DNA from: an uncultured bacterium
GTDB taxonomy: Bacteria > Krumholzibacteriota > Krumholzibacteriia > LZORAL124-64-63
NCBI GenBank assembly: GCA_963732385.1
Contig: CAVSZB010000003.1
Location: forward strand, 288,985-352,984
Direction of reading: 5' to 3'
DNA: 64,000 nucleotides
Shown here: piece after piece, positions 7,593 through 30,258 of the stretch
Layout of the letters: each line of letters begins with the position of its first letter
Position numbering within the stretch: the first letter of the stretch is position 1
Made by a program: the position numbers and the translations under genes
The notes under the pieces: generated by a model
Told to the model about the DNA's origin: nothing
Databases searched by the model: none
What the model saw: only the letters and a program-made list of their open reading frames with translations

Positions 7593-8921
7593 ATGGAACT
7601 GCCCGGGCTCTACAGCCGTGCATTTTATTGCCGCGGCGGCGCTGTTCTGGCCACCGTGCTGGGGATCATGGCGGTGGCCGGAGCGGCCGGGGCCGGTGAG
7701 CTGCAGCTGCTCACGCCGGAGCCTTCGTGGAGCTTCGGCCTGCGCTCGACCGGCTACGCCTTCCAGACGGAGGACCGGCTTGGCGCGGGCGCCGACCAAT
7801 TCCGCTTCTACCAGCAGTTCGCGGGCAGCGCGACGGGGTTGGCGGGGGGGCGGATCACGTTGCGAGGGTCGGGTCGTCTCGCCAGCAGTCCGGCTTCGTC
7901 GTCGACCGACTTCACGAACGCGCGGCTCTACACCGGCTATCTCGAGGCCCGTCTCGCGCCGCGGCTGCGCGCGCGCGTCGGCCGGCAGTTCCTGCAGAGC
8001 GGCGTTGCCGGTCTGACGCTCGATGGTGCATCGCTGACCTGCGGTTTGGCGCGGGGGTCCGAGGCTTTGATCTGGGGCGGCGCGCGGGCGCCGTCGGGCA
8101 ACACGTATGCGTTGGGCAGATTCGACGAAGAAATTGCCGCCGGCGGCCGATTCAGGCTGGCGCTGGCGCCGGCGCACCGGCTCGGGTTTTCCGGCGCCTA
8201 CCGCGAGCGGGACGGAGTCGTGAGCGAGCGTCCGGTCGGGTTCGAGTACACGACGACGGCGGTCCGCCACCTGCGCGCCCTCGCGCGGGCGGCCTACGAT
8301 CTGGAAGGCGATCGCTGGGCGCGCCTCGAGGCACAGGGCACGTGGCAGGTCGCGCCGCAGCGCCCCGCCGTAACGCTGCAGTTCATGGATCGCCACCCCT
8401 CCGTTGACGCGGCGTCTTGGTTCGCCCGTTTCGTGGATGTGAAGCGGATCCGGCTGGCGCGCGGCGCGGTGCGCTGGGAGCAGCGCTCGCGCTACGGAGG
8501 CGAACTGGAGTATATGGGTTCCTTCGTCGACACGCGCGCCTCGTCGCGGGTGGGGTTGGCGCTGCTGATGCCCAACGCCCGCCTTGGCTACTCGGTGCGG
8601 TTCGGCGACGCAGGCGAGGAGAACAGCCTCTACGGCGAGGCGGGCTGGCAGGCCGCCCCGTGGTTGCGTCTCGAGGGGGAGGCGTCGTACCTGACCTACG
8701 CCCTGATCACCGACGCCCCCGCGTCGGACGAACGGGATCTCACCACGCTCGCGGCGCGGTTTTGCGCCCGGCTCCGTCCCGGCCTGGATGTCACGGCCGA
8801 GGTGCAGCGTCTCGACAATCCGCTCTACTCGAGCGATATCCGTTTCCTGCTGGGCGTCGATCTGGCCATGGCGCGCGGGACTTCGCGCTACGGCCTCGAC
8901 CGGGGAGGCTGGCTGCGATGA
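7593..8921 (+). CDS. Outer-membrane beta-barrel protein; candidate porin of a porin-cytochrome (Pcc-like) conduit.
   Basis: Signal peptide (MELPGLYSRAFYCRGGAVLATVLGIMAVAGAAGAGE), alternating amphipathic beta-strand pattern, and an aromatic C-terminus. Its stop overlaps the start of the following cytochrome gene (ATGA). Confidence 0.6.
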   Translation: MELPGLYSRAFYCRGGAVLATVLGIMAVAGAAGAGELQLLTPEPSWSFGLRSTGYAFQTEDRLGAGADQFRFYQQFAGSATGLAGGRITLRGSGRLASSPASSSTDFTNARLYTGYLEARLAPRLRARVGRQFLQSGVAGLTLDGASLTCGLARGSEALIWGGARAPSGNTYALGRFDEEIAAGGRFRLALAPAHRLGFSGAYRERDGVVSERPVGFEYTTTAVRHLRALARAAYDLEGDRWARLEAQGTWQVAPQRPAVTLQFMDRHPSVDAASWFARFVDVKRIRLARGAVRWEQRSRYGGELEYMGSFVDTRASSRVGLALLMPNARLGYSVRFGDAGEENSLYGEAGWQAAPWLRLEGEASYLTYALITDAPASDERDLTTLAARFCARLRPGLDVTAEVQRLDNPLYSSDIRFLLGVDLAMARGTSRYGLDRGGWLR

Positions 8922-9790
8922 GGTTGCCGATCATCCTGACCGTAACGTTGCTGGCCGCGGGCGCGGCGGCGGCCGCCGAGACCGTTCAGCCGGACCGCCT
9001 CGTCATGCCGCACCGCACGCACTTCGAGGCCGGCGTCGAGTGCGCGACCTGCCACGCAGGGGTGGCCGAATCGCGCAGCGCGCGCGACAACCTGCGCCCC
9101 GGCATGGACGACTGCGGCGCCTGTCACGACATCGCTGACGACACAGGCTGCGCCACGTGCCACACGAACGTCGATGCGATCGAGCCGGTCGCGCGCCCGG
9201 CGTTCCCCGCGGAAAAGTTCGCTCACGCCGCCCATCTCGGTCGGAACATGGCCTGCGCCGCCTGCCACGGCGATCCGGCCGTGGTCGCGCCGCGGCTCCC
9301 GGCCAAGCCCGACTGCCGCGTCTGCCACGCCACCGCCGACGACTACGGTGACTGCCGCCTCTGCCACGCCGACCGCGCGAACCTGCGTCCGGTCTCGCAC
9401 GGCGCCTTCTGGGCGAATCGCCACGGCGGCCAGGCGCGCGAAAACGCGGCGCTCTGCGCCACCTGTCACACGCAGACCTCTTGCCAGACCTGCCATGCCG
9501 GCGACAACGTCCGCCCGCGGACGCATCCCCTGAACTTCGTCTTCAATCACGGCATCAGGGCGCGGGGCAACGAGCAGGACTGCGCCACCTGCCACGGCGA
9601 GCCGGAATTCTGCAGCTCCTGCCACGTCGCCGAGCGGGTGTTGCCCGACAGCCACTCGCGGGCCGGCTGGGTCCGCCTGCCGGACGGCGGCCGGCACGCC
9701 GTCGACGGCGTTTTTGAAATCGAAAGCTGCATCGCCTGCCACAGTGACGGCAAGGGCGCACCGACCTGCGCCGCCTGCCACGGAGGCTGA
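8918..9790 (+). CDS. Periplasmic dodecaheme c-type cytochrome (12 CXXCH motifs in ~290 aa).
   Basis: Signal peptide MRLPIILTVTLLAAGAAAAAE, then CATCH, CGACH, CATCH, CAACH, CRVCH, CRLCH, CATCH, CQTCH, CATCH, CSSCH, CIACH and CAACH counted directly. Confidence 0.85.
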   Translation: MRLPIILTVTLLAAGAAAAAETVQPDRLVMPHRTHFEAGVECATCHAGVAESRSARDNLRPGMDDCGACHDIADDTGCATCHTNVDAIEPVARPAFPAEKFAHAAHLGRNMACAACHGDPAVVAPRLPAKPDCRVCHATADDYGDCRLCHADRANLRPVSHGAFWANRHGGQARENAALCATCHTQTSCQTCHAGDNVRPRTHPLNFVFNHGIRARGNEQDCATCHGEPEFCSSCHVAERVLPDSHSRAGWVRLPDGGRHAVDGVFEIESCIACHSDGKGAPTCAACHGG

Positions 9791-9795
9791 GCCGC

Positions 9796-11556
9796 ATGAC
9801 ACATCACGACAGACTTGCGTTGCCGCCCCGCCTGGCTCTGCTGCTGCTGGCCGGCCTGGGGCTGATCGCGCTGGCCGGCTGCGCGGAGCGCGACGTCGAT
9901 CCCGATTTCGGCGCCCATCCCGCGGACTGGAACCGGACCGCCTCGCCCGATTTCCACGGCGAATACGTGAAGGCGAGGGGGCTGACCTCCTGCCGGAGTT
10001 GCCATGCGTTCGACCTGCACGGCACCGCCGACGTTCCGGGTTGCTACGCCTGCCACGACGGGCCTGGCGGGCATCCGGTCGGATGGTCTGCGGCGCAGGC
10101 TCATGGCGTCGAGGTGAGCACGAACGGTTCGTCCACCTGCGCCGTCTGTCATGGCGATGACTACCGCGGGGGCTGGAGCGGCGTCTCCTGCTACACCTGT
10201 CACGACGGCCCCACCGGCGCCCATCCCGACGGGTGGGCCGACGCGAGCCAGCACGGCGTCTTCGTGCACGACAACAGCGCCTCGTCGTGCACCATGTGTC
10301 ACGGTGCCGACTACCTCGGCGGCACGAGCGGAATCTCCTGCTTCACCTGCCACGACGGGCCGGGCGGCCATCCGGTCGACTGGGCTCTGCGCGTCAATCA
10401 CGGGGCGGACGTCGTTGCGAACGGCTCCACCTCCTGCACCGCCTGCCACGGCGCCGACTATCTGGGCGGCTGGAGCACCGTCTCCTGCTACAGCTGCCAC
10501 GACGGCCCCACCGGCGCCCACCCCGACGGCTGGGCCGACCCGGCGCAGCACGGCGTCTTCGTGCGCGACAACAGCGCCTCGTCGTGCACGACGTGCCACG
10601 GCGCCGACTACCTCGGCGGCACGAGCGGAATCTCCTGCTACACCTGTCACGACGGTCCGGGCGGCCATCCGGTCGACTGGGCGCTGCGCGTCAATCACGG
10701 GGCGGATGTCGTCGCCAACGGCTCCACCTCCTGCACCTCCTGCCACGGCGCCGACTACCTGGGTGGATGGAGCACCGTCTCCTGCTACACCTGTCACGAC
10801 GGCCCCACCGGCGCCCATCCCGACGGGTGGGCCGACGCGAGCCAGCACGGCGTCTTCGTGCGCGACAACAGCGCCTCGTCGTGCACGACGTGCCACGGCG
10901 CCGACTACCTCGGCGGCACGAGCGGAATCTCCTGCTACACCTGTCACGACGGTCCGGGCGGCCATCCGGTCGACTGGGCGCTGCGCGTCAATCACGGGGC
11001 GGATGTCGTCGCCAACGGCTCCACCTCCTGCACCTCCTGCCACGGCGCCGACTACCTGGGTGGATGGAGCACCGTCTCCTGCTACACCTGTCACGACGGC
11101 CCCACCGGCTCTCACCCCGACGGGTGGGCCGACCCGGCGCAGCATGGCGCGGCGGTCCGCTTGAGCGGCGCTTCATCCTGCACGTCATGTCACGGCGCGG
11201 ATTATTTCGGCGGCACGAGCGGGGTGTCGTGCTTCACCTGCCACGACGGCCCGGGCGGCCATCTGGTCGGCTGGGTCGATCCCGCCAACCACGGCATTGC
11301 GGTGGTGAACGAAAGCGCCCTCGACTGCCGGACCTGCCACGGCACCGACTACAGCGGCGGCTGGAGCACGATCTCCTGCTACACCTGCCACGACGGCCCG
11401 GGTGGCCACCCCGTGAACTGGCGGCGGAGGTCCCTGCACGGAGTCTACGCCGACACATACGGCACCCACGAGTGCGCGGCGTGCCACGGGCAGGACTTCC
11501 GTGGCAGCTGGACCGGCGTTTCCTGCTACCAGTGCCACGACGGGCCCAATCCCTGA
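9796..11556 (+). CDS. Lipoprotein multiheme c-type cytochrome with 22 CXXCH motifs arranged as repeated paired-CXXCH modules.
   Basis: Lipobox LAGC. Repeated modules of the form SCT(S/T)CHGADYLGG(W/T)S.(V/I)SCYTCHDGP(T/G)G.HP. There is a GGAGG RBS 9 nt upstream of the ATG. It starts 6 bp after the stop of the preceding cytochrome gene. Confidence 0.85.
   Translation: MTHHDRLALPPRLALLLLAGLGLIALAGCAERDVDPDFGAHPADWNRTASPDFHGEYVKARGLTSCRSCHAFDLHGTADVPGCYACHDGPGGHPVGWSAAQAHGVEVSTNGSSTCAVCHGDDYRGGWSGVSCYTCHDGPTGAHPDGWADASQHGVFVHDNSASSCTMCHGADYLGGTSGISCFTCHDGPGGHPVDWALRVNHGADVVANGSTSCTACHGADYLGGWSTVSCYSCHDGPTGAHPDGWADPAQHGVFVRDNSASSCTTCHGADYLGGTSGISCYTCHDGPGGHPVDWALRVNHGADVVANGSTSCTSCHGADYLGGWSTVSCYTCHDGPTGAHPDGWADASQHGVFVRDNSASSCTTCHGADYLGGTSGISCYTCHDGPGGHPVDWALRVNHGADVVANGSTSCTSCHGADYLGGWSTVSCYTCHDGPTGSHPDGWADPAQHGAAVRLSGASSCTSCHGADYFGGTSGVSCFTCHDGPGGHLVGWVDPANHGIAVVNESALDCRTCHGTDYSGGWSTISCYTCHDGPGGHPVNWRRRSLHGVYADTYGTHECAACHGQDFRGSWTGVSCYQCHDGPNP
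10201..11100 (+). repeat. Intragenic tandem repeat with period 297 bp (99 aa, 4 heme motifs per unit). There are three near-identical copies, with diverged copies on both flanks.
   Basis: The unit cacgacggccccaccggcgcccatcccgacgggtgggcc... recurs at 10201, 10498, 10795 and (diverged) 11092. Copies 2 and 3 are almost identical at the nucleotide level. Confidence 0.8.
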
Positions 11557-11614: not shown

Positions 11615-12622
11615 CTAGAAGTCGGCGTCCAGCACCACCCGATAGCGTGCCTTTCCCGCGTGGAGATGCGCCACCGCGTCGTTCACCCGGCTCATCGGGA
11701 AGTGCTCCGTCACCGGCGCGATGCCGTGGCGCGCGCAGAAGTCGAGCATTCTGCGCGTGGTCGCGGGGGAGCCGAGCGGGGAACCGGAGATGCTCTTCTG
11801 CCCGCCGATCAGTGTGAACGCCGGCACCGGGATCGGCGACGGCACCACGCCAACGGTGTGCAGGCGTCCCTTCGGCGCCAGCGCGGCGAGGTACTGACCC
11901 CAGTCGAGATCCACGTTCACGGTCGAGAGGATGAAGTCGAACGAGCCGGCGAGCTTCTCCAGCTCGCCCGCCTGGCGCGAGTTCACGACGTGGTGCGCGC
12001 CCATGGTGACCGCTTCGTCGCGCTTGGCGTCGTGCGACGTGAAGGCAGTCACCTCGCAGCCCCACCGGTTCAGGAACTGCAGCGCGAGGTGGCCCAGACC
12101 TCCGATGCCGATCACGCCGACGCGGTCGGTCGGCTGCACGCCGCACTGCACGATCGGATTGAACACGGTGATGCCGCCGCAGAACAGCGGGCCGGCCCTG
12201 CGCGCATCGAGGCCGGCCGGCAGACGGATCGCCCACTCCGCCCGGCAGCGCACCTTGTCGGCGAAGCCTCCGTAGCGGCCGACGATGGTCTGCTCGCCGT
12301 GGCCGCAGAGATTGTGGTCTCCGCTCATGCACTGGTCGCAGGTCAGACAGCTCCCGCTGTACCAGCCGAGGCCGACCGTATCGCCGGCTGCGACGCTCGT
12401 GACGTGCGCGCCGATTGCGGCCACCCTGCCGATGACCTCGTGCCCTGGCACGAGGGGGTAGGCGGACATGTGCCAGTCGTTGGCGAGCATCGACAGGTCC
12501 GAGTGACACAAGCCGCAGGCCTGGACGTCGATTTCGACCTGGTCCGGCCCGAGAGGACCGGGGTCGTACTCGAAGGCCCGTAGCTGATCCCCTGCCTTGT
12601 GCGCGGCATATGCCCTGATCAT
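11615..12622 (-). CDS. Zinc-dependent, NAD(P)-dependent alcohol dehydrogenase (MDR family; YahK/cinnamyl-alcohol-dehydrogenase-like).
   Basis: MIRAYAAHKAGDQL...CGLCHSDLS...GHEVIG...CGHGEQ...GVIGIGGLGHLALQF has the catalytic and structural Zn ligands and a Rossmann GxGxxG fold. Confidence 0.85.
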   Translation of the reverse strand: MIRAYAAHKAGDQLRAFEYDPGPLGPDQVEIDVQACGLCHSDLSMLANDWHMSAYPLVPGHEVIGRVAAIGAHVTSVAAGDTVGLGWYSGSCLTCDQCMSGDHNLCGHGEQTIVGRYGGFADKVRCRAEWAIRLPAGLDARRAGPLFCGGITVFNPIVQCGVQPTDRVGVIGIGGLGHLALQFLNRWGCEVTAFTSHDAKRDEAVTMGAHHVVNSRQAGELEKLAGSFDFILSTVNVDLDWGQYLAALAPKGRLHTVGVVPSPIPVPAFTLIGGQKSISGSPLGSPATTRRMLDFCARHGIAPVTEHFPMSRVNDAVAHLHAGKARYRVVLDADF

Positions 12623-12769
12623 GAGCACTCCTTCATTGGCCGGCGACACGCCGGACCCCGGGAATCGCGGCCTGTTCCGCCGCGCGCGAAGTTTGGCACA
12701 GGGATAGGCGTGAAAGGGATTTTCCGCACCCACTCGCAGCAGGCACGTTCGCCGGGAACATTTTGGACA

Positions 12770-14023: not shown

Positions 14024-14143
14024 GCGTCTGCCGCTCAAGCCAAGTCGCAATTTGACGAATACTTCCCTGTCATGGTCTCGAAACACCACATGGGGAGTGC
14101 GGGAACGTTGCGTCCACGGGGCAGGCGCCTATTTACGCCTGTT

Positions 14144-15379
14144 ATGGCTGAGGCGCGCGCGGCGCCGCTCGTGGCGCTGGCCGTTGCGCTGGCGGCGTTG
14201 GCCGGCGCATCCACCGCGTGGACAGCCCAGGAGCCCGCGGACAAGGATCCTGCCCTCTATTACTACCTCATCGCCGCGCCGACCGATGTGCGCGCCGTGG
14301 ACCATCCGAACGACAACGGCGGCACGATCATTGTCACCTGGACCCTCTCGGTCAATGACACCCCGGACGGCGGGATTGTCAGCGGCTATGTCGTTCGTCG
14401 GGCGCGGTCCGTGAACGGGCCCTATGAGGACGTGGGACAGACCACCGCGCGCTCCGACCGCTACATCGATTCGTCGGCGGGAATCAGCGTCCCGTTCTTC
14501 TACCGGGTCGATGCGCTGGCGGACGGCGTTGCGAGCCCTTCCGATCCCGTGGGGCCGGTCGTCTCGAGCTACCAGTGGTTCAACTGGGATCGCCTCAACC
14601 TCGCCGTACTGAGTTTGCTGCTTTCGGGCGCCGTGCTCTGGTGGGTGGATGCGCTGAAACGGGGGCGCACCGTAACCGTCCGCCGAATTCCTGGTCTCGA
14701 GGCGATTGGCGAGGCGGTCGGGCGTGCCACGGAAATGGGTCGCCCGATCCTGTTCGTGCCGGGGCTGCAGGACATGGACGACATGCAGACGGTCGCCGCC
14801 ATCACGATCCTCGGGCGGGTGGCCGCCATGACCGCGGAGTACGACGCGCACCTCGAAGTGCCGACCACGCGCTCGCTTGTCATGACCGCGGCCCGCGACG
14901 CGGTGCAGCGGGCCTGCCTGGGCGCGGGCCGTCCGGACGCCTTCAATCCGGAGTCGATCTACTACGTGACCAACGAACAGTTCGGGTACGTCGCCGCGAT
15001 CAACGGCGTGATCTGCCGCGATCGTCCCGCGACCTGTCTCTACTTCGGCGCCTTCTTCGCGGAATCGCTCATCCTGTCCGAGACCGGTCGCGGCGTGGGC
15101 GCCGTGCAGATCGCGGGAACTGCGGAGACGGCGCAGGTTCCGTTCTTCCTGGCCGCGTGCGACTACGTGCTGATCGGCGAGGAGTTCTACGCCGCGTCGG
15201 CCTATCTCTCGGGCGATCCCCGGCAGCTCGGCAGCCTGAAGGGGCAGGACACCGGCAAGGTGTTCGCGGCGGCCGCGATCGTGCTCGGCTGCCTGCTGGC
15301 GACCGCGGCCTCGCTGACCGGTTCGCGAACTTTGGAAGCCCTGGCCGGCGCGGTGCGCGCCGTATTCCGCACGCAATAG
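14144..15379 (+). CDS. Membrane protein with signal peptide, FN3-like ectodomain, one TM helix and a ~230 aa cytoplasmic domain; function unknown. It is the first gene of a four-gene membrane operon.
   Basis: MAEARAAPLVALAVALAALAGASTAWTAQEP signal peptide. IVTWTLS...GYVVRR...FFYRVDAL has an FN3-like pattern. The TM helix is LAVLSLLLSGAVLWWV. The track ORF starts at 14072; the true start is uncertain. Confidence 0.45.
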   Translation: MAEARAAPLVALAVALAALAGASTAWTAQEPADKDPALYYYLIAAPTDVRAVDHPNDNGGTIIVTWTLSVNDTPDGGIVSGYVVRRARSVNGPYEDVGQTTARSDRYIDSSAGISVPFFYRVDALADGVASPSDPVGPVVSSYQWFNWDRLNLAVLSLLLSGAVLWWVDALKRGRTVTVRRIPGLEAIGEAVGRATEMGRPILFVPGLQDMDDMQTVAAITILGRVAAMTAEYDAHLEVPTTRSLVMTAARDAVQRACLGAGRPDAFNPESIYYVTNEQFGYVAAINGVICRDRPATCLYFGAFFAESLILSETGRGVGAVQIAGTAETAQVPFFLAACDYVLIGEEFYAASAYLSGDPRQLGSLKGQDTGKVFAAAAIVLGCLLATAASLTGSRTLEALAGAVRAVFRTQ

Positions 15380-25368: not shown

Positions 25369-25707
25369 ATGGAAAAAAAGCTGTACGAAATGCAGGCCGA
25401 GCTCTGCAAGACCCTTTCCAACCCCAAGCGGCTGGAAATTCTCGATATATTGAAGGAGGAGAGGGAGATCTCGGTCAATCGCCTCGCCGAGCGGCTCGAA
25501 ATCCCCAAGGCGAACACCTCGCAGCACCTGGCAGTGCTGAGGCAGGCCGGCGTGGTGGCGACCCGCAAGGACGGCATCAACGTCCACTACAGCCTGCGTT
25601 CCACGAAGATCTCCGAAGCGTGCAGCTTGACCCGCGCCATCCTGCTGGAGAAATTGGAAGATCAGGCCGGGCTCAGCACCCTGATCCGCAAGGACAGCGA
25701 CTCCTGA
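25369..25707 (+). CDS. ArsR/SmtB-family metalloregulatory transcription factor.
   Basis: MEKKLYEMQAELCKTLSNPKRLEILDILKEEREISVNRLAERLEIPKANTSQHLAVLRQAGVV is a classic wHTH. The promoter-like AT-rich region at 25240-25320 (ttgactttgacgtcgcgcataaagtttattatgct) lies upstream. Confidence 0.85.
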   Translation: MEKKLYEMQAELCKTLSNPKRLEILDILKEEREISVNRLAERLEIPKANTSQHLAVLRQAGVVATRKDGINVHYSLRSTKISEACSLTRAILLEKLEDQAGLSTLIRKDSDS

Positions 25708-25759
25708 CGGTCGCGCCGGCGGGCCATTGGGGCCAGCACACCTGCGGGCGGAGGAAACC

Positions 25760-27106
25760 GTGACGCAGCCGCTTTCGGTGCGCTTTCTGCAGATTTCCGA
25801 TGTTCATCTGGGTGCCTCGATGGCCGCATCGCGTCTCGGCTATCCGCCGGAGCGGGCCGCGCAGCGGGCGGCCGAGGTGCAGGCGGCGTTCGCCGGGGCG
25901 ATGCGCCTGGCGATCGAGGAGCGGTGCGACGGCGTGCTGCTGCCGGGCGACCTGTTCGACGGCGAGGCGGTGGATGACGCGGTAGCCGCGGCGGCCTTCG
26001 CGGCGATCCGCGAACTGGCGCCGCTGCCGGTATTCCTCACCCCCGGCAATCACGATCCCTACTCTCCCGAGGGCCCGTATGGTGAGGCGCGCTGGCGCCT
26101 GCTGGCCGGTGGCGAGGGGCCGCCCGCGAACCTCGTGCTGTTTCGTGAAGAGCGGTTCGTTACCGTGCCGTGGCCCGGACGGCCCGACGTCACCGTGACC
26201 GGCGCCGCGTTCCTGCGCCCGACCGCAGTGCGCGAGCGGCGGCTGCAGCAGACGGTGGTGGACCCTGCGTCCCTGGCACCAGACCGCATCCATCTCGCCC
26301 TGCTGCACGGCTCGCGCGACGACTCCGGACTTCTCCAGGCCCACAAGGCCACCCTCCCGTTCAGCGCGGCGGAACTCGCGGCGCAGCCGTTCGACTACGT
26401 CGCCGTCGGGCACTACCACAGTTCGGCGCCGATCCTCGACCCCGCCACCGGGGAGGTGCGGGGCGGCTACGCCGGCATGCCGGCCTTTATCGGTCTCGAC
26501 GAGGAGGGCGAGAAGAGCGTGCTGCTCGTCGAGGTGGATCTCAGCCCCGGCCCGTTGCGGCGCCGGGTCGTGCGGGCGCGCAACCGGGTGGTGGACCCGC
26601 GTCGTCTGCACCGGCTCGTTGTGGACGTGACCGGTCGGCGCGACATCGAACAGGCACGCGCGGCACTGGTTGAACAGTACGAGCGCGCCGGGGTGCGTCC
26701 GATCGACGCCGTGGCCGTGCGCTTCCAGGGCCGGCTCGCGGCGGAGCTGGGGCGCCAGGAGTTGCAGGAAATGGCGTCCGCATGGCTGTCCGGGCGTTGC
26801 TGGCACGCCGCGGCCTGGTGCTCGGGGATCGAACCGGACCTCGACGTGTCGCGCTTCCTCGAGGGGGAGTCGCGGACCCTGCAGGCGCTCTTCGCGCGCG
26901 AACTGGCGGCGCGCGCCGGAGATCCCGCGCTCGCGGTGCGCGAACGGGAGATTGCGCGGCGGGCGTTGGCCTATGGCATCGAGGCCCTGGAGACGGGGCG
27001 CATTCGCCGGCGGTGGGAGCCGGATGTGGCCGGGCCGGCCTGGAGCGCGGCGGCGGGCGACGCACCGCCGACCGTCCCCGAAACGAACGGGGGGGGCGGG
27101 GCGTGA
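25760..27106 (+). CDS. Mre11/SbcD-like calcineurin-fold phosphoesterase (DNA-repair-exonuclease-type nuclease subunit).
   Basis: Phosphoesterase motifs ISDVHLG, LPGDLFDG, TPGNHDP, and later His motifs (LLHGS, AVGHYH). GTG start at 25760. Confidence 0.75.
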   Translation: MTQPLSVRFLQISDVHLGASMAASRLGYPPERAAQRAAEVQAAFAGAMRLAIEERCDGVLLPGDLFDGEAVDDAVAAAAFAAIRELAPLPVFLTPGNHDPYSPEGPYGEARWRLLAGGEGPPANLVLFREERFVTVPWPGRPDVTVTGAAFLRPTAVRERRLQQTVVDPASLAPDRIHLALLHGSRDDSGLLQAHKATLPFSAAELAAQPFDYVAVGHYHSSAPILDPATGEVRGGYAGMPAFIGLDEEGEKSVLLVEVDLSPGPLRRRVVRARNRVVDPRRLHRLVVDVTGRRDIEQARAALVEQYERAGVRPIDAVAVRFQGRLAAELGRQELQEMASAWLSGRCWHAAAWCSGIEPDLDVSRFLEGESRTLQALFARELAARAGDPALAVREREIARRALAYGIEALETGRIRRRWEPDVAGPAWSAAAGDAPPTVPETNGGGGA

Positions 27107-30100
27107 GATTTCTCTCGCTGCACGTGCGCGGCTTCGGAGGCCTGCGGCCGGGCGAGTACCGGTTCGGAGACCGCACGCTCGTCGTCGAGCCGAACTCCAC
27201 CGGCAAGAGCACGCTGGCCGCGGCGTTGCGCGCCGCCCTCTACGGACTGGAAGGGGATCGTCGTCGCCAGCATGGCTTCACCGATCTCGAGGCCTGGGAG
27301 CCGTGGCGCGGTGGCGCCTACGGTCTGACGCTGCTGTTGCAGACGCGGGACGGCTTTTTCACCATCGAACGCGATTTCGCGCGCGCCGGCGGCCAGCTCA
27401 CGGTGCGCGACACCACCGGCGCCGACGTCACGGCGCGGTTCCTCGTCGGTCGTGGGCGAGACCGCGCCGGAGAACTGCTGGCCGGAGTTGGCGAGCCGGA
27501 TTTCCTGCGGGCGGCGCTGGCCGCGGACCGGGCCTGGGGACAGCCGTGGCGCGACGGAGAGATCGGGCGGCTGACCGATCTGCTCGGGCAGGTCGTCAGC
27601 AGCGACGAGGGGGGAGGTCCGGCTGCCGCGGCTCTCGCCGCGTGTGACGAAGCGCTGCGCCAGTACGAGGGCGTGACCGTGAAGGGGGCGGCGAAGGTCG
27701 AAACCGAGATCCAGCGGATCGAGCTGCGGCTCGGGCAGATCCGCGCCGATCGCGAAGCGACCGAGCGGCGCCACGATGCCGCGCTGGCGACCCTCGCCCA
27801 GCTGGCGGAGTGGCGCGGACAGCTGGCCAGGCTCGACGCCGCGCTCGACCTCAACCGTCGCCGGCGCCTTGGCGCCCAGGCCGCGGCGCAACGGCGGGCG
27901 CTCGATGCGCGTTCCCGCGCGGAATCCGAACTGGCCCAGGCGCGCCGCCGCGTCGCCGCCCTGGCGCCCCTGGACGGATTTCCGCCCGGTCGCGAGGTGG
28001 AGCTGGCGGCGTGGGCCGAACGGTGCGCGCAGGGGGACCGCGAGGCGGACGTCCGGCGCCGACGCATGGAGGAGACGCTGCGTCCCGAACTGGCCCGGTT
28101 CGAGGCGGAGCTGGCCGACGCGGGCTTCGCCGGCGCGGGCGTACTGGGAGAGCTGGAGTCGGGGGTGGCGGCGCTGCTGGAGCGGGAGGCCCGTCTGGCA
28201 GAGTTGCGCGTCGAGCGCGACGCGCGACGCGCGCGCATCGCAGACGAAGGGGAAGACCCGGAACTGCAGGCCGCGGTGCACGCCGGCCTCGCCCGTCTTG
28301 GCGAGACCGAGCGCCGATTCCTGCGCGAGCAGGAGCGTCTCGATTTCGAACGCGATGAAATTGCCACCCGCCTCGACCGGGACGAAAGCGCCGTGCGCGT
28401 CGCCATGTCAGAGTGGGCGGGCGCTGCGCGCGGACAGGCCCGTGGCCGCAATGCCGCCGGAGCCCTGGCGGTGGTCGGCGGCGCCGGCGCGCTGGGCGCC
28501 CTGCTGCTGCGGGAGACCGGAGCGTCACCGCCATGGACGGTGCTGGAGGTCGCGCTGGGGATCGCCCTGCTCGGGGCGGGGCTGGCGGTCCGGCTGCACC
28601 GTCAAGGTGCGGCGCTGCGCCGCCGGTGCGAACTCCAGGGCACTGACCGACTGGCGGGTCTGGCCCGCGAACGGGAGGCCTTGCGTGAGCGCGAGGCGGT
28701 ACGGCGCGATCGTCTCGCCGAACTTTCCCCGGTTCTGCTGCCGTCCCGTTGCGGAGAGCCGGCGTCAACCGCCGACGATCTGACTGCAATCTACCGCCGA
28801 CACGAGTCGTTCCGCGTGCGCCACGATGACTGGTTCCGCCTCGCCGAACGCGGCGCCGAAGAGGAGGCGGAGATTGCGCGGCTGCACGCGCGGCTGGCGC
28901 CGTTCCTGGACGAGGGGGCGGCCGCCCCCCCGGCCGCCGGCCACACTGCCCGCCTGCAGGTCGAGCTGGCGCGCCGGCGACGCATCGTCGCCCTGGAAGA
29001 GAAGATCGCGCGCGCGCGCGCGGTCCTCGCGCAGGCCGGACGCGAAGAGGCCGAGCACGCGCAGCGCGCACTGGAGGCCGGCCGGCGCGCCGCCGCGATT
29101 CTCGCCGTGCTGCCGCCCGGCTGCCGCTTTGCGCCGCCCACCGCCGCCGATGCCGGCACTGTCCGCGACGAAATCGCCCGCCTGGTTCCCCTGTTCCGCG
29201 CCGATCCCGCCGGCGTCGCGGCCTGGTTCTCCGCGCGCGCCGCCGAGGCCGCGGAGGCTCTCCGCCTGGGCGACGAGTTGCTGCCGGCCCTCGAGCGGCG
29301 CCTCGCGGAACTGCCCGCGGCCGCCGAGTTGGCGCGCGCGTTGGCGGCGACGGAGGGCGAACTGGCGCTGCAGGCGGTCGCCGCCGCCGCTGCGACCGCG
29401 GCCAGGACGGCCGGGGAGGGTGACGAGGACTCCCCGCGTTTCGCGCCGGCGGAAACGCTGGCGGTGGACGAACTGCTGGCGCAGGGAGAAGCGCTGCAGG
29501 AGCGCCGGCGCGCACTGGCCGGCGAGATCGGCGAGCGCTCCCGCGGCGTGGCGGAAATCGAGCGCGAACGGCGCGCGCACCTGCCCGACCTTGCGCGCCA
29601 GGAACGGGAACTGGTCGCCTTTCTGCAGCGCGCCCGTGATTTCCGCGATGCCGTCACGCTGGCCCGCGAGATGATCGCGAAACACGCCGGTGACGTGTAC
29701 GGTCGCTGGGCCGCCGTCCTCGACGCCGACGCCGCGCGTCTCGCCACCCGCCTCTGTCCCGAGATCGCCGGCGTGGCCTTCACGCCGGAACTCGATTACG
29801 TCGTCACCCTCGCCGACGGTCGCCGTCTCGATGCCGCCCGCGCCGATCGCCAGCTCAGTCGTGGCGTGCGCGATCAACTCGTTCTGGCCGTTCGCCTGGC
29901 CCTGGCCCGCTTCCTTGCTCGCCCCGGCGAGCCGCTGCCGCTCCTGTTGGACGATCCTTTCGCCCACTACGACGACGCCCGCTTCCGCCGGGGCATGTCG
30001 GCCCTCGCCGAAGAGGCGTCGGGCCACCAGATCATCCTGCTGACCTGCCAGGCGGAGCGGCAGCGCTGGCTCCGCGAGGTCGCGCCTGAATCCTGCGGGC

Positions 30101-30126
30101 CCTGGACCCGGTTGGAGATCGGCTGA
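27103..30126 (+). CDS. SbcC/Rad50-like ABC ATPase with a long coiled coil. It lacks a CXXC zinc hook and instead carries two hydrophobic helices at the coil apex (YhaN-like).
   Basis: N-terminal RFLSLHVRGFGG...VVEPNSTGKSTL (Walker A). C-terminal LSRGVRDQLVLAVRLAL (signature) and LLLDDPFAHYD (Walker B/D-loop). The centre is AGALAVVGGAGALGALLL...WTVLEVALGIALLGAGLAV. Its GTG start overlaps the SbcD-like stop (GTGA). Confidence 0.75.
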   Translation: MRFLSLHVRGFGGLRPGEYRFGDRTLVVEPNSTGKSTLAAALRAALYGLEGDRRRQHGFTDLEAWEPWRGGAYGLTLLLQTRDGFFTIERDFARAGGQLTVRDTTGADVTARFLVGRGRDRAGELLAGVGEPDFLRAALAADRAWGQPWRDGEIGRLTDLLGQVVSSDEGGGPAAAALAACDEALRQYEGVTVKGAAKVETEIQRIELRLGQIRADREATERRHDAALATLAQLAEWRGQLARLDAALDLNRRRRLGAQAAAQRRALDARSRAESELAQARRRVAALAPLDGFPPGREVELAAWAERCAQGDREADVRRRRMEETLRPELARFEAELADAGFAGAGVLGELESGVAALLEREARLAELRVERDARRARIADEGEDPELQAAVHAGLARLGETERRFLREQERLDFERDEIATRLDRDESAVRVAMSEWAGAARGQARGRNAAGALAVVGGAGALGALLLRETGASPPWTVLEVALGIALLGAGLAVRLHRQGAALRRRCELQGTDRLAGLAREREALREREAVRRDRLAELSPVLLPSRCGEPASTADDLTAIYRRHESFRVRHDDWFRLAERGAEEEAEIARLHARLAPFLDEGAAAPPAAGHTARLQVELARRRRIVALEEKIARARAVLAQAGREEAEHAQRALEAGRRAAAILAVLPPGCRFAPPTAADAGTVRDEIARLVPLFRADPAGVAAWFSARAAEAAEALRLGDELLPALERRLAELPAAAELARALAATEGELALQAVAAAAATAARTAGEGDEDSPRFAPAETLAVDELLAQGEALQERRRALAGEIGERSRGVAEIERERRAHLPDLARQERELVAFLQRARDFRDAVTLAREMIAKHAGDVYGRWAAVLDADAARLATRLCPEIAGVAFTPELDYVVTLADGRRLDAARADRQLSRGVRDQLVLAVRLALARFLARPGEPLPLLLDDPFAHYDDARFRRGMSALAEEASGHQIILLTCQAERQRWLREVAPESCGPWTRLEIG

Positions 30127-30258
30127 GCCGAAACCGGTACGCCAGGCACAATTGCGGTGGCACAAGGAAAACATTGGCCGCCGCCGGCCTCAGGACCGAT
30201 GATAGGTGGGTCGGCGACCGGCCGTCACGATCACCTCACCCTGTTGAAAGGTGGGCCA

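Follow-up and report, generated by a model that had tools for sequence, protein, structure and literature searches.

By the published definition, a porin-cytochrome (Pcc) conduit combines an outer-membrane cytochrome with a porin-like protein that has 18-22 strands and a periplasmic cytochrome that has 5-14 hemes (PMC4245776). The outer cytochromes in that 2014 survey carried 1-15 typical heme motifs (PMC4245776), and in Geobacter the conserved Orf1 and Orf2 are accompanied by a variable outer cytochrome slot (PMC2825233). This study was concerned with a lipoprotein multiheme cytochrome gene in a 64,000-nt stretch of DNA from an uncultured bacterium of the Krumholzibacteriota (contig CAVSZB010000003.1; the whole stretch is called the window below). 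It is the last of three genes that lie on one strand in the order barrel, 12-heme periplasmic cytochrome, lipoprotein cytochrome, and, judged from motif counts and a predicted barrel fold, this cluster matches the published Pcc layout. We consider it likely, at a probability of roughly 0.7, that the product of the gene is the lipid-anchored outer cytochrome of a Pcc-type conduit, a modular chain of 22 hemes whose length and interior are reshaped by recombination. The genes of the cluster are:

7593-8921, plus strand: predicted outer-membrane beta-barrel of ~442 aa, first gene of the cluster (from homolog length and an AlphaFold2 (AF2) model)
8918-9790, plus strand: periplasmic 12-heme cytochrome of 290 aa (12 CXXCH, Sec-type signal peptide, no lipobox)
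9796-11556, plus strand: lipoprotein multiheme cytochrome gene (586 aa, 22 CXXCH, 11 two-heme modules)

The layout of the cluster is closest to the Geobacter Pcc and, more loosely, to MtrCAB, and the architecture of the lipoprotein is closest to that of GSU1996-type cytochromes. The gene order is common to the Geobacter OmbB-OmaB-OmcB conduit (PMC4245776, PMC4282303), the barrel (22 strands, predicted) and the 12-heme cytochrome are inside the published ranges, and both systems combine a variable outer partner with two conserved first genes. The two are likened here by gene layout; Pfam and NCBIfam assign none of the three window proteins to a specific family. However, the outer cytochrome of the window carries 22 hemes (6-28 in relatives), outside the 1-15 range, and the Geobacter system swaps unrelated outer cytochromes whereas the window family alters the number of one cassette. 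The logic in common with Shewanella MtrCAB (PDB 6R2Q) would be that a barrel-sheathed periplasmic cytochrome hands electrons to a surface lipoprotein. MtrB has 28 predicted trans-membrane motifs (PMC4245776). MtrC holds 10 hemes in two pentaheme domains and also has two beta-barrel domains, whereas the model of the window protein contains only short helices and loops. No Pfam match to PF22113 (MtrC/MtrF domain II/IV) was obtained for the 22-heme protein.

In GSU1996 the repeated domain is of the c7 type, ~80 aa long, and has three hemes, one of them His-Met, whereas the window unit has two hemes in ~49 aa and is predicted to be all bis-His. The GSU1996 family (PDB 3OV0) is likewise a single polypeptide of tandem small multiheme domains with an extended heme chain, and long predicted relatives of this type are known in Desulfuromonadia (PMC11492766). 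GSU1996 is periplasmic, whereas the window protein is a lipoprotein encoded in a barrel operon. Membership in these c7 polymers was considered and rejected, since the modules have 2 CXXCH and the protein only 2 Met. No report of near-identical DNA repeats or of an ortholog copy-number series was found in the literature searched for the GSU1996 family.

Repeat-variable bacterial surface proteins, such as adhesins, have in-frame arrays with a homogenised interior and diverged edges, and their copy number shifts by recombination. Unlike adhesin repeats, each window repeat is predicted to carry two covalently bound redox cofactors, so that copy number would alter the hemes in the electron path. 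Multiheme cytochromes evolve through module 'grafting and pruning' (PMC9250108; preprint 10.1101/2025.05.29.656830). That work describes the same gain and loss of whole modules, but as ancient events between protein families, whereas in the window the process is visible in the DNA of one orthologous gene. No paper on intragenic concerted evolution or on a copy-number series of heme modules was found in a literature search of incomplete coverage. Nor did that search find a description of the combination seen here: this cassette family, orthologs that differ only in the number of cassettes while barrel and periplasmic base are conserved, and DNA-level signs of current recombination.

Eleven two-heme modules in one lipoprotein

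The signals at the start of the gene are:

9782-9786, plus strand: ribosome-binding site GGAGG, 9 nt ahead of the lipoprotein ATG (read from the sequence)
9796-9882, plus strand: signal peptide ending in the lipobox L-A-G-C, with Cys29 at codon 9880-9882 (from the translation)

A translation scan of the 586-aa product counted exactly 22 CXXCH and zero atypical heme motifs. The original prediction, made from the sequence alone, had named a 22-heme lipoprotein gene at this place, and the motif count and the lipobox agree with it. The N-terminus is MTHHDRLALPPRLALLLLAGLGLIALAGC, the lipobox Cys is kept in orthologs L001-L019, and the stop codon of the upstream 12-heme gene (9788-9790) comes just after the GGAGG. 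The GC fraction at the three codon positions (GC1/2/3) is 0.624/0.61/0.877, with GC3 of the coding type. The product is probably a lipoprotein cytochrome of the cell surface through which electrons leave the cell.

A two-heme module of 147/150 bp (49/50 aa) forms the basic repeat, and 11 modules occupy 9955-11553. Each has two CXXCH and two candidate distal His in the pattern HG-x10-CxxCH-x12-CxxCH-DGPxG(A)HP-x(6-7), a consensus kept in 41 homologs. Two module types alternate, designated 'W' (GGWS...PTGAHPDGW, 50 aa, 150 bp) and 'T' (GGTSG...PGGHPVDW, 49 aa, 147 bp). The protein contains 49 His, of which 22 are within CXXCH and a further 22 are candidate distal ligands (11 'HG', 10 'HP/HL' and one N-terminal 'AHP'), and 2 Met, one of which is the initiator. 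With one candidate distal His per heme and only 2 Met, all of the hemes are predicted to be bis-His. At a density of ~25 aa per heme in the mature lipoprotein, the chain of 11 near-minimal ~49-aa modules would give 22 bis-His hemes in the form of a single-chain heme wire.

Pfam placed the 22-heme protein in the generic Cytochrome_C7 and Cytochrom_c3_2 families only, and NCBIfam returned nothing above cut-off. PF09699 (Paired_CXXCH_1) was absent among its Pfam matches at E <= 0.01; a precomputed PF09699 match is present in some homologs (P0008, P0010, P0026, P0047). None of the solved structures is a sequence relative. A profile of 42 family members reaches generic multiheme proteins, namely HmcA (1.5e-10), OmcA (2.9e-9, a weak and generic match) and GSU1996 (2e-4, a weak match over 84 positions of 3ov0). 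The AF2 model, built from a 42-member alignment, has a predicted local distance difference test score (pLDDT) of 71 and a predicted template modelling score (pTM) of 0.29, and shows two helices and a short helix per module in strict periodicity. Its sole fold match to MtrA is insignificant (E = 2.1), and neither homology nor fold similarity to the filament subunits OmcS, OmcE and OmcZ was found. Two relatives (P0010, P0025) bear the Joint Genome Institute label 'uncharacterized CHY-type Zn-finger protein', which is probably a mis-annotation from dense Cys/His motifs.

Tandem Repeats Finder (TRF) reported a period of 297 x 4.6 copies at 10042-11399 (86% matches, score 1769), inside which a period of 147 x 8.4 copies is nested, and this is the sole tandem array scoring >= 80 in the window. 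A repeat search located a ~97-nt core in 10 copies at 147/150-bp spacing over 9990-11421, with an 11th at 11462. Two modules, as one A+B pair, make up the higher-order repeat of 297 bp. The original prediction described a four-heme 297-bp module repeated head-to-tail at 10201, 10498 and 10795, with a diverged copy at 11092 and older diverged copies on both sides. The repeats were recovered in all of these places, and the 297-bp period stands; the basic unit, however, has two hemes in 147/150 bp, and the counts of relatives change by whole two-heme modules. In the register of the prediction, the unit at 10201 is 91.9% identical to that at 10498 and 93.9% to that at 10795, the latter two are 98.0% identical to each other, and each of these three has 74-75% identity to the unit at 11092. 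All 6 differences between the units at 10498 and 10795 are in 10519-10545, where they affect four codons (two synonymous, two amino-acid). The differences between units are mainly synonymous (15 synonymous and 7 non-synonymous for units 1/2, 13 and 5 for units 1/3), which indicates that the modules are under purifying selection. The longest exact tracts are arranged as follows:

10546-10812, plus strand: first copy of a perfect 267-bp repeat, an exact match at a shift of 297 and the longest exact repeat
10813-10842, plus strand: 30-bp patch, a mosaic junction between the perfect copies, inside an 86-bp tract identical to copy 1
10843-11109, plus strand: second copy of the perfect 267-bp repeat, an exact match at a shift of 297

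The 86-bp tract is perfect at a shift of 594 (10182-10267 = 10776-10861), and the patch differs at 6 sites from its copy-2 equivalent (10516-10545). This mosaic of exact tracts, 267 bp at one shift and 86 bp at the other, requires more than one exchange.

Homogenised interior and changing module number

Comparison of the window with 18-heme relatives by BLAST produced two overlapping alignments for the 297-bp indel. Since the placement of an indel in a tandem array is inherently ambiguous, all of the modules in 15 genomes were compared in a nearest-neighbour test instead. The array is divided accordingly:

9955-10251, plus strand: modules m1-m2, N-terminal end of the array, evolving as orthologs
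10252-11142, plus strand: modules m3-m8, internal homogenised block of alternating 147-bp 'T' and 150-bp 'W' modules
11143-11553, plus strand: modules m9-m11, C-terminal end of the array, evolving as orthologs, the last module without the trailing 'GHP'

At the N-terminal end m1 is 94% identical to m1 of locus L102 and m2 is 96% identical to m2 of locus L053, with matches of 58-81% for both within the gene. At the C-terminal end m9-m11 are 94-97% identical to m7-m9 of L053 and 60-74% to their paralogs. In the interior, the nearest module to m3 and to m5-m8 is a paralog in the same gene (94-100%), with the best match in another genome at 88-90%; m5 and m7 are identical (100%), m6 and m8 are 97% identical, and m4 is tied at 92% between its best paralog and its best ortholog. 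These identities indicate that the internal modules are under concerted evolution, from which the edge modules are exempt.

The flanking DNA is 94-97% identical to the window in locus L103 and about 87-94%, by segment, in L022, L053 and L102. The 3-6% divergence of L103 would predict roughly 8-15 differences in 267 bp and there are 0, which places the 267-bp event long after the window separated from its nearest relatives. An ancient duplication kept identical by purifying selection alone was rejected, since third-codon positions are also identical over the 267 bp while the flanks of relatives differ by 3-12%. The original prediction had explained the near-identity of its second and third copies by a very recent duplication or gene conversion, and the same figures confirm a recent recombination event.

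In the orthologous gene of locus L004 a separate perfect repeat of 218 bp was observed (L004:10349-10566 and 10793-11010), at a shift of 444, or three modules. This lineage is unrelated, its 12-heme partner being ~55% identical to that of the window, and we read the L004 repeat as an independent recent event, the size of the higher-order repeat differing between lineages. Internal 147-nt segments in L001, L002, L003 and L014 are at 90-94% identity.

An exact look-up of the 586-aa protein in public assemblies gave no match. A word-indexed search returned 455 proteins at E <= 1e-5, a search among 1.84 billion returned 177 cluster representatives at E <= 1e-30 and 514 at E <= 1e-10, and scans of species-representative genomes and metagenomes returned 101 loci. 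Family members are ~130 to 1,832 aa long. The nearest loci are in metagenome-assembled genomes (MAGs) labelled Krumholzibacteria/Krumholzibacteriia, 'Fibrobacteraceae' and Latescibacterota, and more distant ones in MAGs of Glassbacteria, Gemmatimonadales and Rhodothermales. The three-gene synteny recurs in MAGs of Krumholzibacteriota, Latescibacterota, Glassbacteria, Gemmatimonadales and Rhodothermales. In at least 15 loci tblastn places both the barrel and the 12-heme cytochrome immediately upstream, and the ClpB and Fic flanks are common to the window and its close relatives L001, L022 and L102. Both upstream proteins are constant in size in at least 15 syntenic relatives. The upstream cytochrome is ~290 aa long in relatives, most syntenic loci have a spacing of 27, 99, 30, 117, 39 in its last six motifs, and the loci scanned over the entire gene (L001, L021, L053, L054) have all 12 motifs at identical spacing. 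Hemes of the lipoprotein were counted as TGY-N6-TGY-CAY motifs in the DNA, a count that is robust to frameshifts:

28 hemes: L002, L013 (about 28)
26 hemes: L003, L006, L007, L010
24 hemes: L005
22 hemes: window, L022, L004
18 hemes: L001, L053
16 hemes: L011
14 hemes: L015
12 hemes: L102, L019
10 hemes: L021
6 hemes: L029

The lipoprotein spans 6 to 28 hemes (3 to 14 modules) across syntenic orthologs. The gaps between motifs alternate in every locus between 51 nt and 93-102 nt, with a few Nanopore-derived loci off by 1-2 nt, and thus the change is always by whole two-heme modules, in frame. At roughly 88-93% identity to the window in the flanks, L022 has 22 hemes, L053 has 18 and L102 has 12, which puts these counts within one species complex. 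Copy-number variation among orthologues, for which the original prediction proposed to look, is therefore found both across the family and among close relatives.

Several single loci deserve separate mention. The array at L102:2224-3240 has 12 hemes despite ~88% nucleotide identity and full synteny, and its penultimate module appears fused (…GPGGHPVNWRRKSLHG…); either the array has truly contracted or its short-read assembly is collapsed. L012:10229-12262 contains 20 regular heme motifs, a 273-nt gap and 6 more motifs, and may represent two adjacent cassette genes or an insertion. The distant relatives P0228 (1832 aa) and P0231 (1211 aa) have 66 and 44 CXXCH, respectively, at the same 17/31-34-residue spacing and with a lipobox. 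Judged from these two, the cassette array can grow far longer than in the window.

Taken together, the module comparisons suggest an array under module-level purifying selection in which recombination repeatedly homogenises the interior and alters the number of modules. Since the DNA is a tandem array, misaligned modules could recombine by unequal exchange or gene conversion. Such recombination would homogenise the internal modules, leaving the perfect 267-bp repeat and the mosaic 86-bp tract, and would add or remove whole modules in frame, leaving 3 to 14 modules beside a constant barrel and periplasmic cytochrome. The modules at the two ends, which escape homogenisation and evolve as orthologs, presumably serve as the contact with the barrel complex on one side and as the terminus on the other.

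Duplication, function and assembly as alternatives

The alternative that survives best, although we find it doubtful, is a new tandem duplication of one 297-bp unit, [m5 m6] to [m5 m6][m7 m8], from an 18-heme ancestor. L053 holds two modules (m5, m6) where the window holds four, as the near-identical pairs [m5 m6] and [m7 m8]. In the 18-heme loci L053 and L001, exactly two modules are missing from the interval that the orthologs of m4 and m9 enclose, and the two extra modules of the window are near-perfect duplicates. However, a count of 22 hemes is already found in L022, which lies at about the same distance from the window as L053 does (roughly 92%), and the internal modules of L022 are mutually only 81-89% alike, so the 22-heme state may predate the near-identity. 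A single duplication also predicts one unbroken identical block, whereas the 30-bp patch with its 6 differences matches copy 1 and would need a further exchange. Because L022 already has 22 hemes with diverged internal modules, the near-identity in the window could equally be due to gene conversion or unequal exchange, and such exchange in an existing 22-heme array appears to fit as well as a new duplication. Thus, the ongoing amplification of the original prediction is supported as recent recombination and not supported as to its direction. L022 is a Nanopore MAG of Microflora Danica (PMC12313526) with platform-typical indel errors, and its 11 modules were obtained independently. In L022:9970-11790 there are several frame shifts, and one CXXCH is lost near 11058; these look like indel errors, and the protein is prone to mis-calling or splitting.

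The second alternative, which we regard as unlikely, concerns function. The protein may be no extracellular wire but a heme 'capacitor' that stores electrons in the periplasm or at a membrane anchor, or it may act as redox partner of a soluble substrate, with the number of modules drifting neutrally or under pressure from phages or grazers. The location of the lipoprotein is inferred, a lipobox alone being no proof of surface exposure, and copy number follows no obvious phylogenetic pattern. In addition, tandem-repeat surface proteins commonly vary for reasons unrelated to their core function. However, translational linkage to the barrel and the 12-heme cytochrome, together with strict synteny with both in at least 15 loci, reproduces the layout of known trans-outer-membrane conduits (PMC4245776), and the mainly synonymous differences between modules suggest that each one is maintained by selection.

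Least probable is an assembly artefact, in which the assembler met a repeat exceeding its k-mer or read length, looped through it or collapsed it and so gave a wrong module count, the near-identical copies then not existing as they stand: although the perfect 267-bp repeat exceeds typical short reads and k-mers and the short-read contigs of close relatives break here (L103 at window position 10161, L054 after 15 hemes, L063 starting inside the array), the array is fully in frame with 22 intact motifs, the Nanopore relative L022 independently has 11 modules in the same arrangement, other assemblies contain internal repeats of 88-94% identity and, in L004, a second perfect repeat, and three distinct 30-bp patches (10516-10545, 10813-10842, 11110-11139) flank or separate the perfect copies. 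With these three patches, any path through the assembly graph needs at least 2 copies, and an under-count is likelier than an over-count. Assembly trouble had been foreseen at this place, and L054, L063 and L103 do stop in or at the array; this is not pressed as proof, because many metagenome contigs are short and ends inside a 1.8-kb gene are expected fairly often. The genome and metagenome contig scans found no same-species locus spanning the array, and the nearest locus, L103 (94-97%), ends at the start of the repeats.

The reading of the gene as the outer cytochrome of a Pcc-type conduit with a recombining array is preferred, and several points weigh against it. First, homology to characterised Pcc or Mtr components was not demonstrated, the Pfam matches being to generic c7/c3 families only. 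Secondly, we infer heme attachment, surface location, wire-like geometry, the electron-transfer role and any selective advantage of wire length. For the cytochrome, the AF2 model is of moderate confidence and matches no solved structure, and for this reason the wire geometry is assumed from motif density. Third, duplication and conversion are inseparable on the data of a single genome. Lastly, short-read assemblers may miscount a perfect 267-bp repeat, which would apply to the window if it was assembled from short reads, and the lower counts in L102, L001 and L053 are from short-read contigs that are possibly collapsed.

Partner genes, neighbouring genes and meaning

The barrel open reading frame (ORF) opens at TTG 7521; the length of the homologs (442 aa) and the position of the signal peptide suggest ATG 7593 as the start. 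Pfam and NCBIfam gave no match for it, and 107 homologs of ~440 aa each were found. In at least 16 loci it is kept upstream of the cytochromes. The AF2 model (mean pLDDT 85.8) has an N-terminal signal helix and 22 strands, and the best 50 matches listed by Foldseek against the PDB are all outer-membrane barrels (FimD/PapC ushers, Occ porins, AlgE). MtrB was sought and is not in the best 50 fold matches listed, and the protein is therefore named only a generic outer-membrane barrel. MtrB has 26 strands in its crystal structure and is larger than the window barrel. The N-terminus of the 12-heme cytochrome is MRLPIILTVTLLAAGAAAAAE. Its start overlaps the barrel stop in an ATGA, and a gap of 5 nt separates it from the lipoprotein gene. 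Pfam matched this cytochrome to Cytochrome_C7/c3_2, with an additional sub-threshold match to MtrC/MtrF II-IV.

The strand opposite to the array contains one long frame:

9547-11145, minus strand: 532-aa antisense ORF, not a gene (from its GC profile and its disruption in relatives)

This ORF was rejected as a gene. Its GC1/2/3 is 0.835/0.617/0.674, it crosses the sense-gene boundary at 9790/9796, and its frame is interrupted in L053 (3 stops), L001, L004 and L007, whereas the sense frame is open throughout. It had been called spurious in the original prediction, with which the non-coding GC profile and the stops in relatives concur; it appears to be a by-product of GC-rich codon usage, prolonged by the repeats.

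The cluster is preceded by ClpB and followed by a convergent Zn-dependent alcohol dehydrogenase gene and then a Fic-domain gene. The alcohol dehydrogenase gene (window 11615-12733, minus strand) is present in L001, L102, L053 and L063 and is missing from the otherwise collinear L022, where a 63-nt remnant match is left. A gene for a DUF6754 protein (E = 1e-113) at window 14024-15379, plus strand, comes directly after the Fic/DeoR-type helix-turn-helix gene. Further on, window 25685-30126 (plus strand) contains a Metallophos (SbcD-like) gene and then a 1150-aa coiled-coil-rich ORF with an N-terminal P-loop and no Pfam match, which resembles SbcC/Rad50. Antisense ORFs at 26971-28407 and 28765-30189 overlap this SbcC/Rad50-like ORF and look GC-driven and spurious.

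The locus is of interest for several reasons. First, heme counts of such genes from short-read metagenomes should be treated with caution as unreliable, since contigs are prone to break there. Secondly, the minimal cassette, at ~25 aa per heme, could serve in engineered heme wires, and the ortholog length series (6, 10, 12 and up to 28 hemes on the same conduit) could be used to probe how the length of a heme chain relates to the rate or reach of electron transfer. Third, it is not yet settled how the reach of extracellular electron conduits is determined in microbes, and the known systems have either fixed heme numbers (Mtr) or swapped unrelated outer cytochromes (Geobacter Pcc). The DNA of this array is taken as a sign of a still-active process of whole-cassette change. 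More speculatively, and at odds we would put rather low, the family may be a widespread and hitherto undescribed one of recombination-tunable, single-chain extracellular heme wires strung from a minimal 49-aa, two-heme 'heme bead', with unequal exchange between cassettes allowing populations to extend or trim the wire. The 6 to 28 hemes in orthologs and up to 66 in distant relatives would then be set on a fixed base of barrel and 12-heme cytochrome. Length variants would coexist in populations and be selected by the distance electrons have to travel, as given by the thickness of the envelope or capsule and by mineral as opposed to soluble acceptors.

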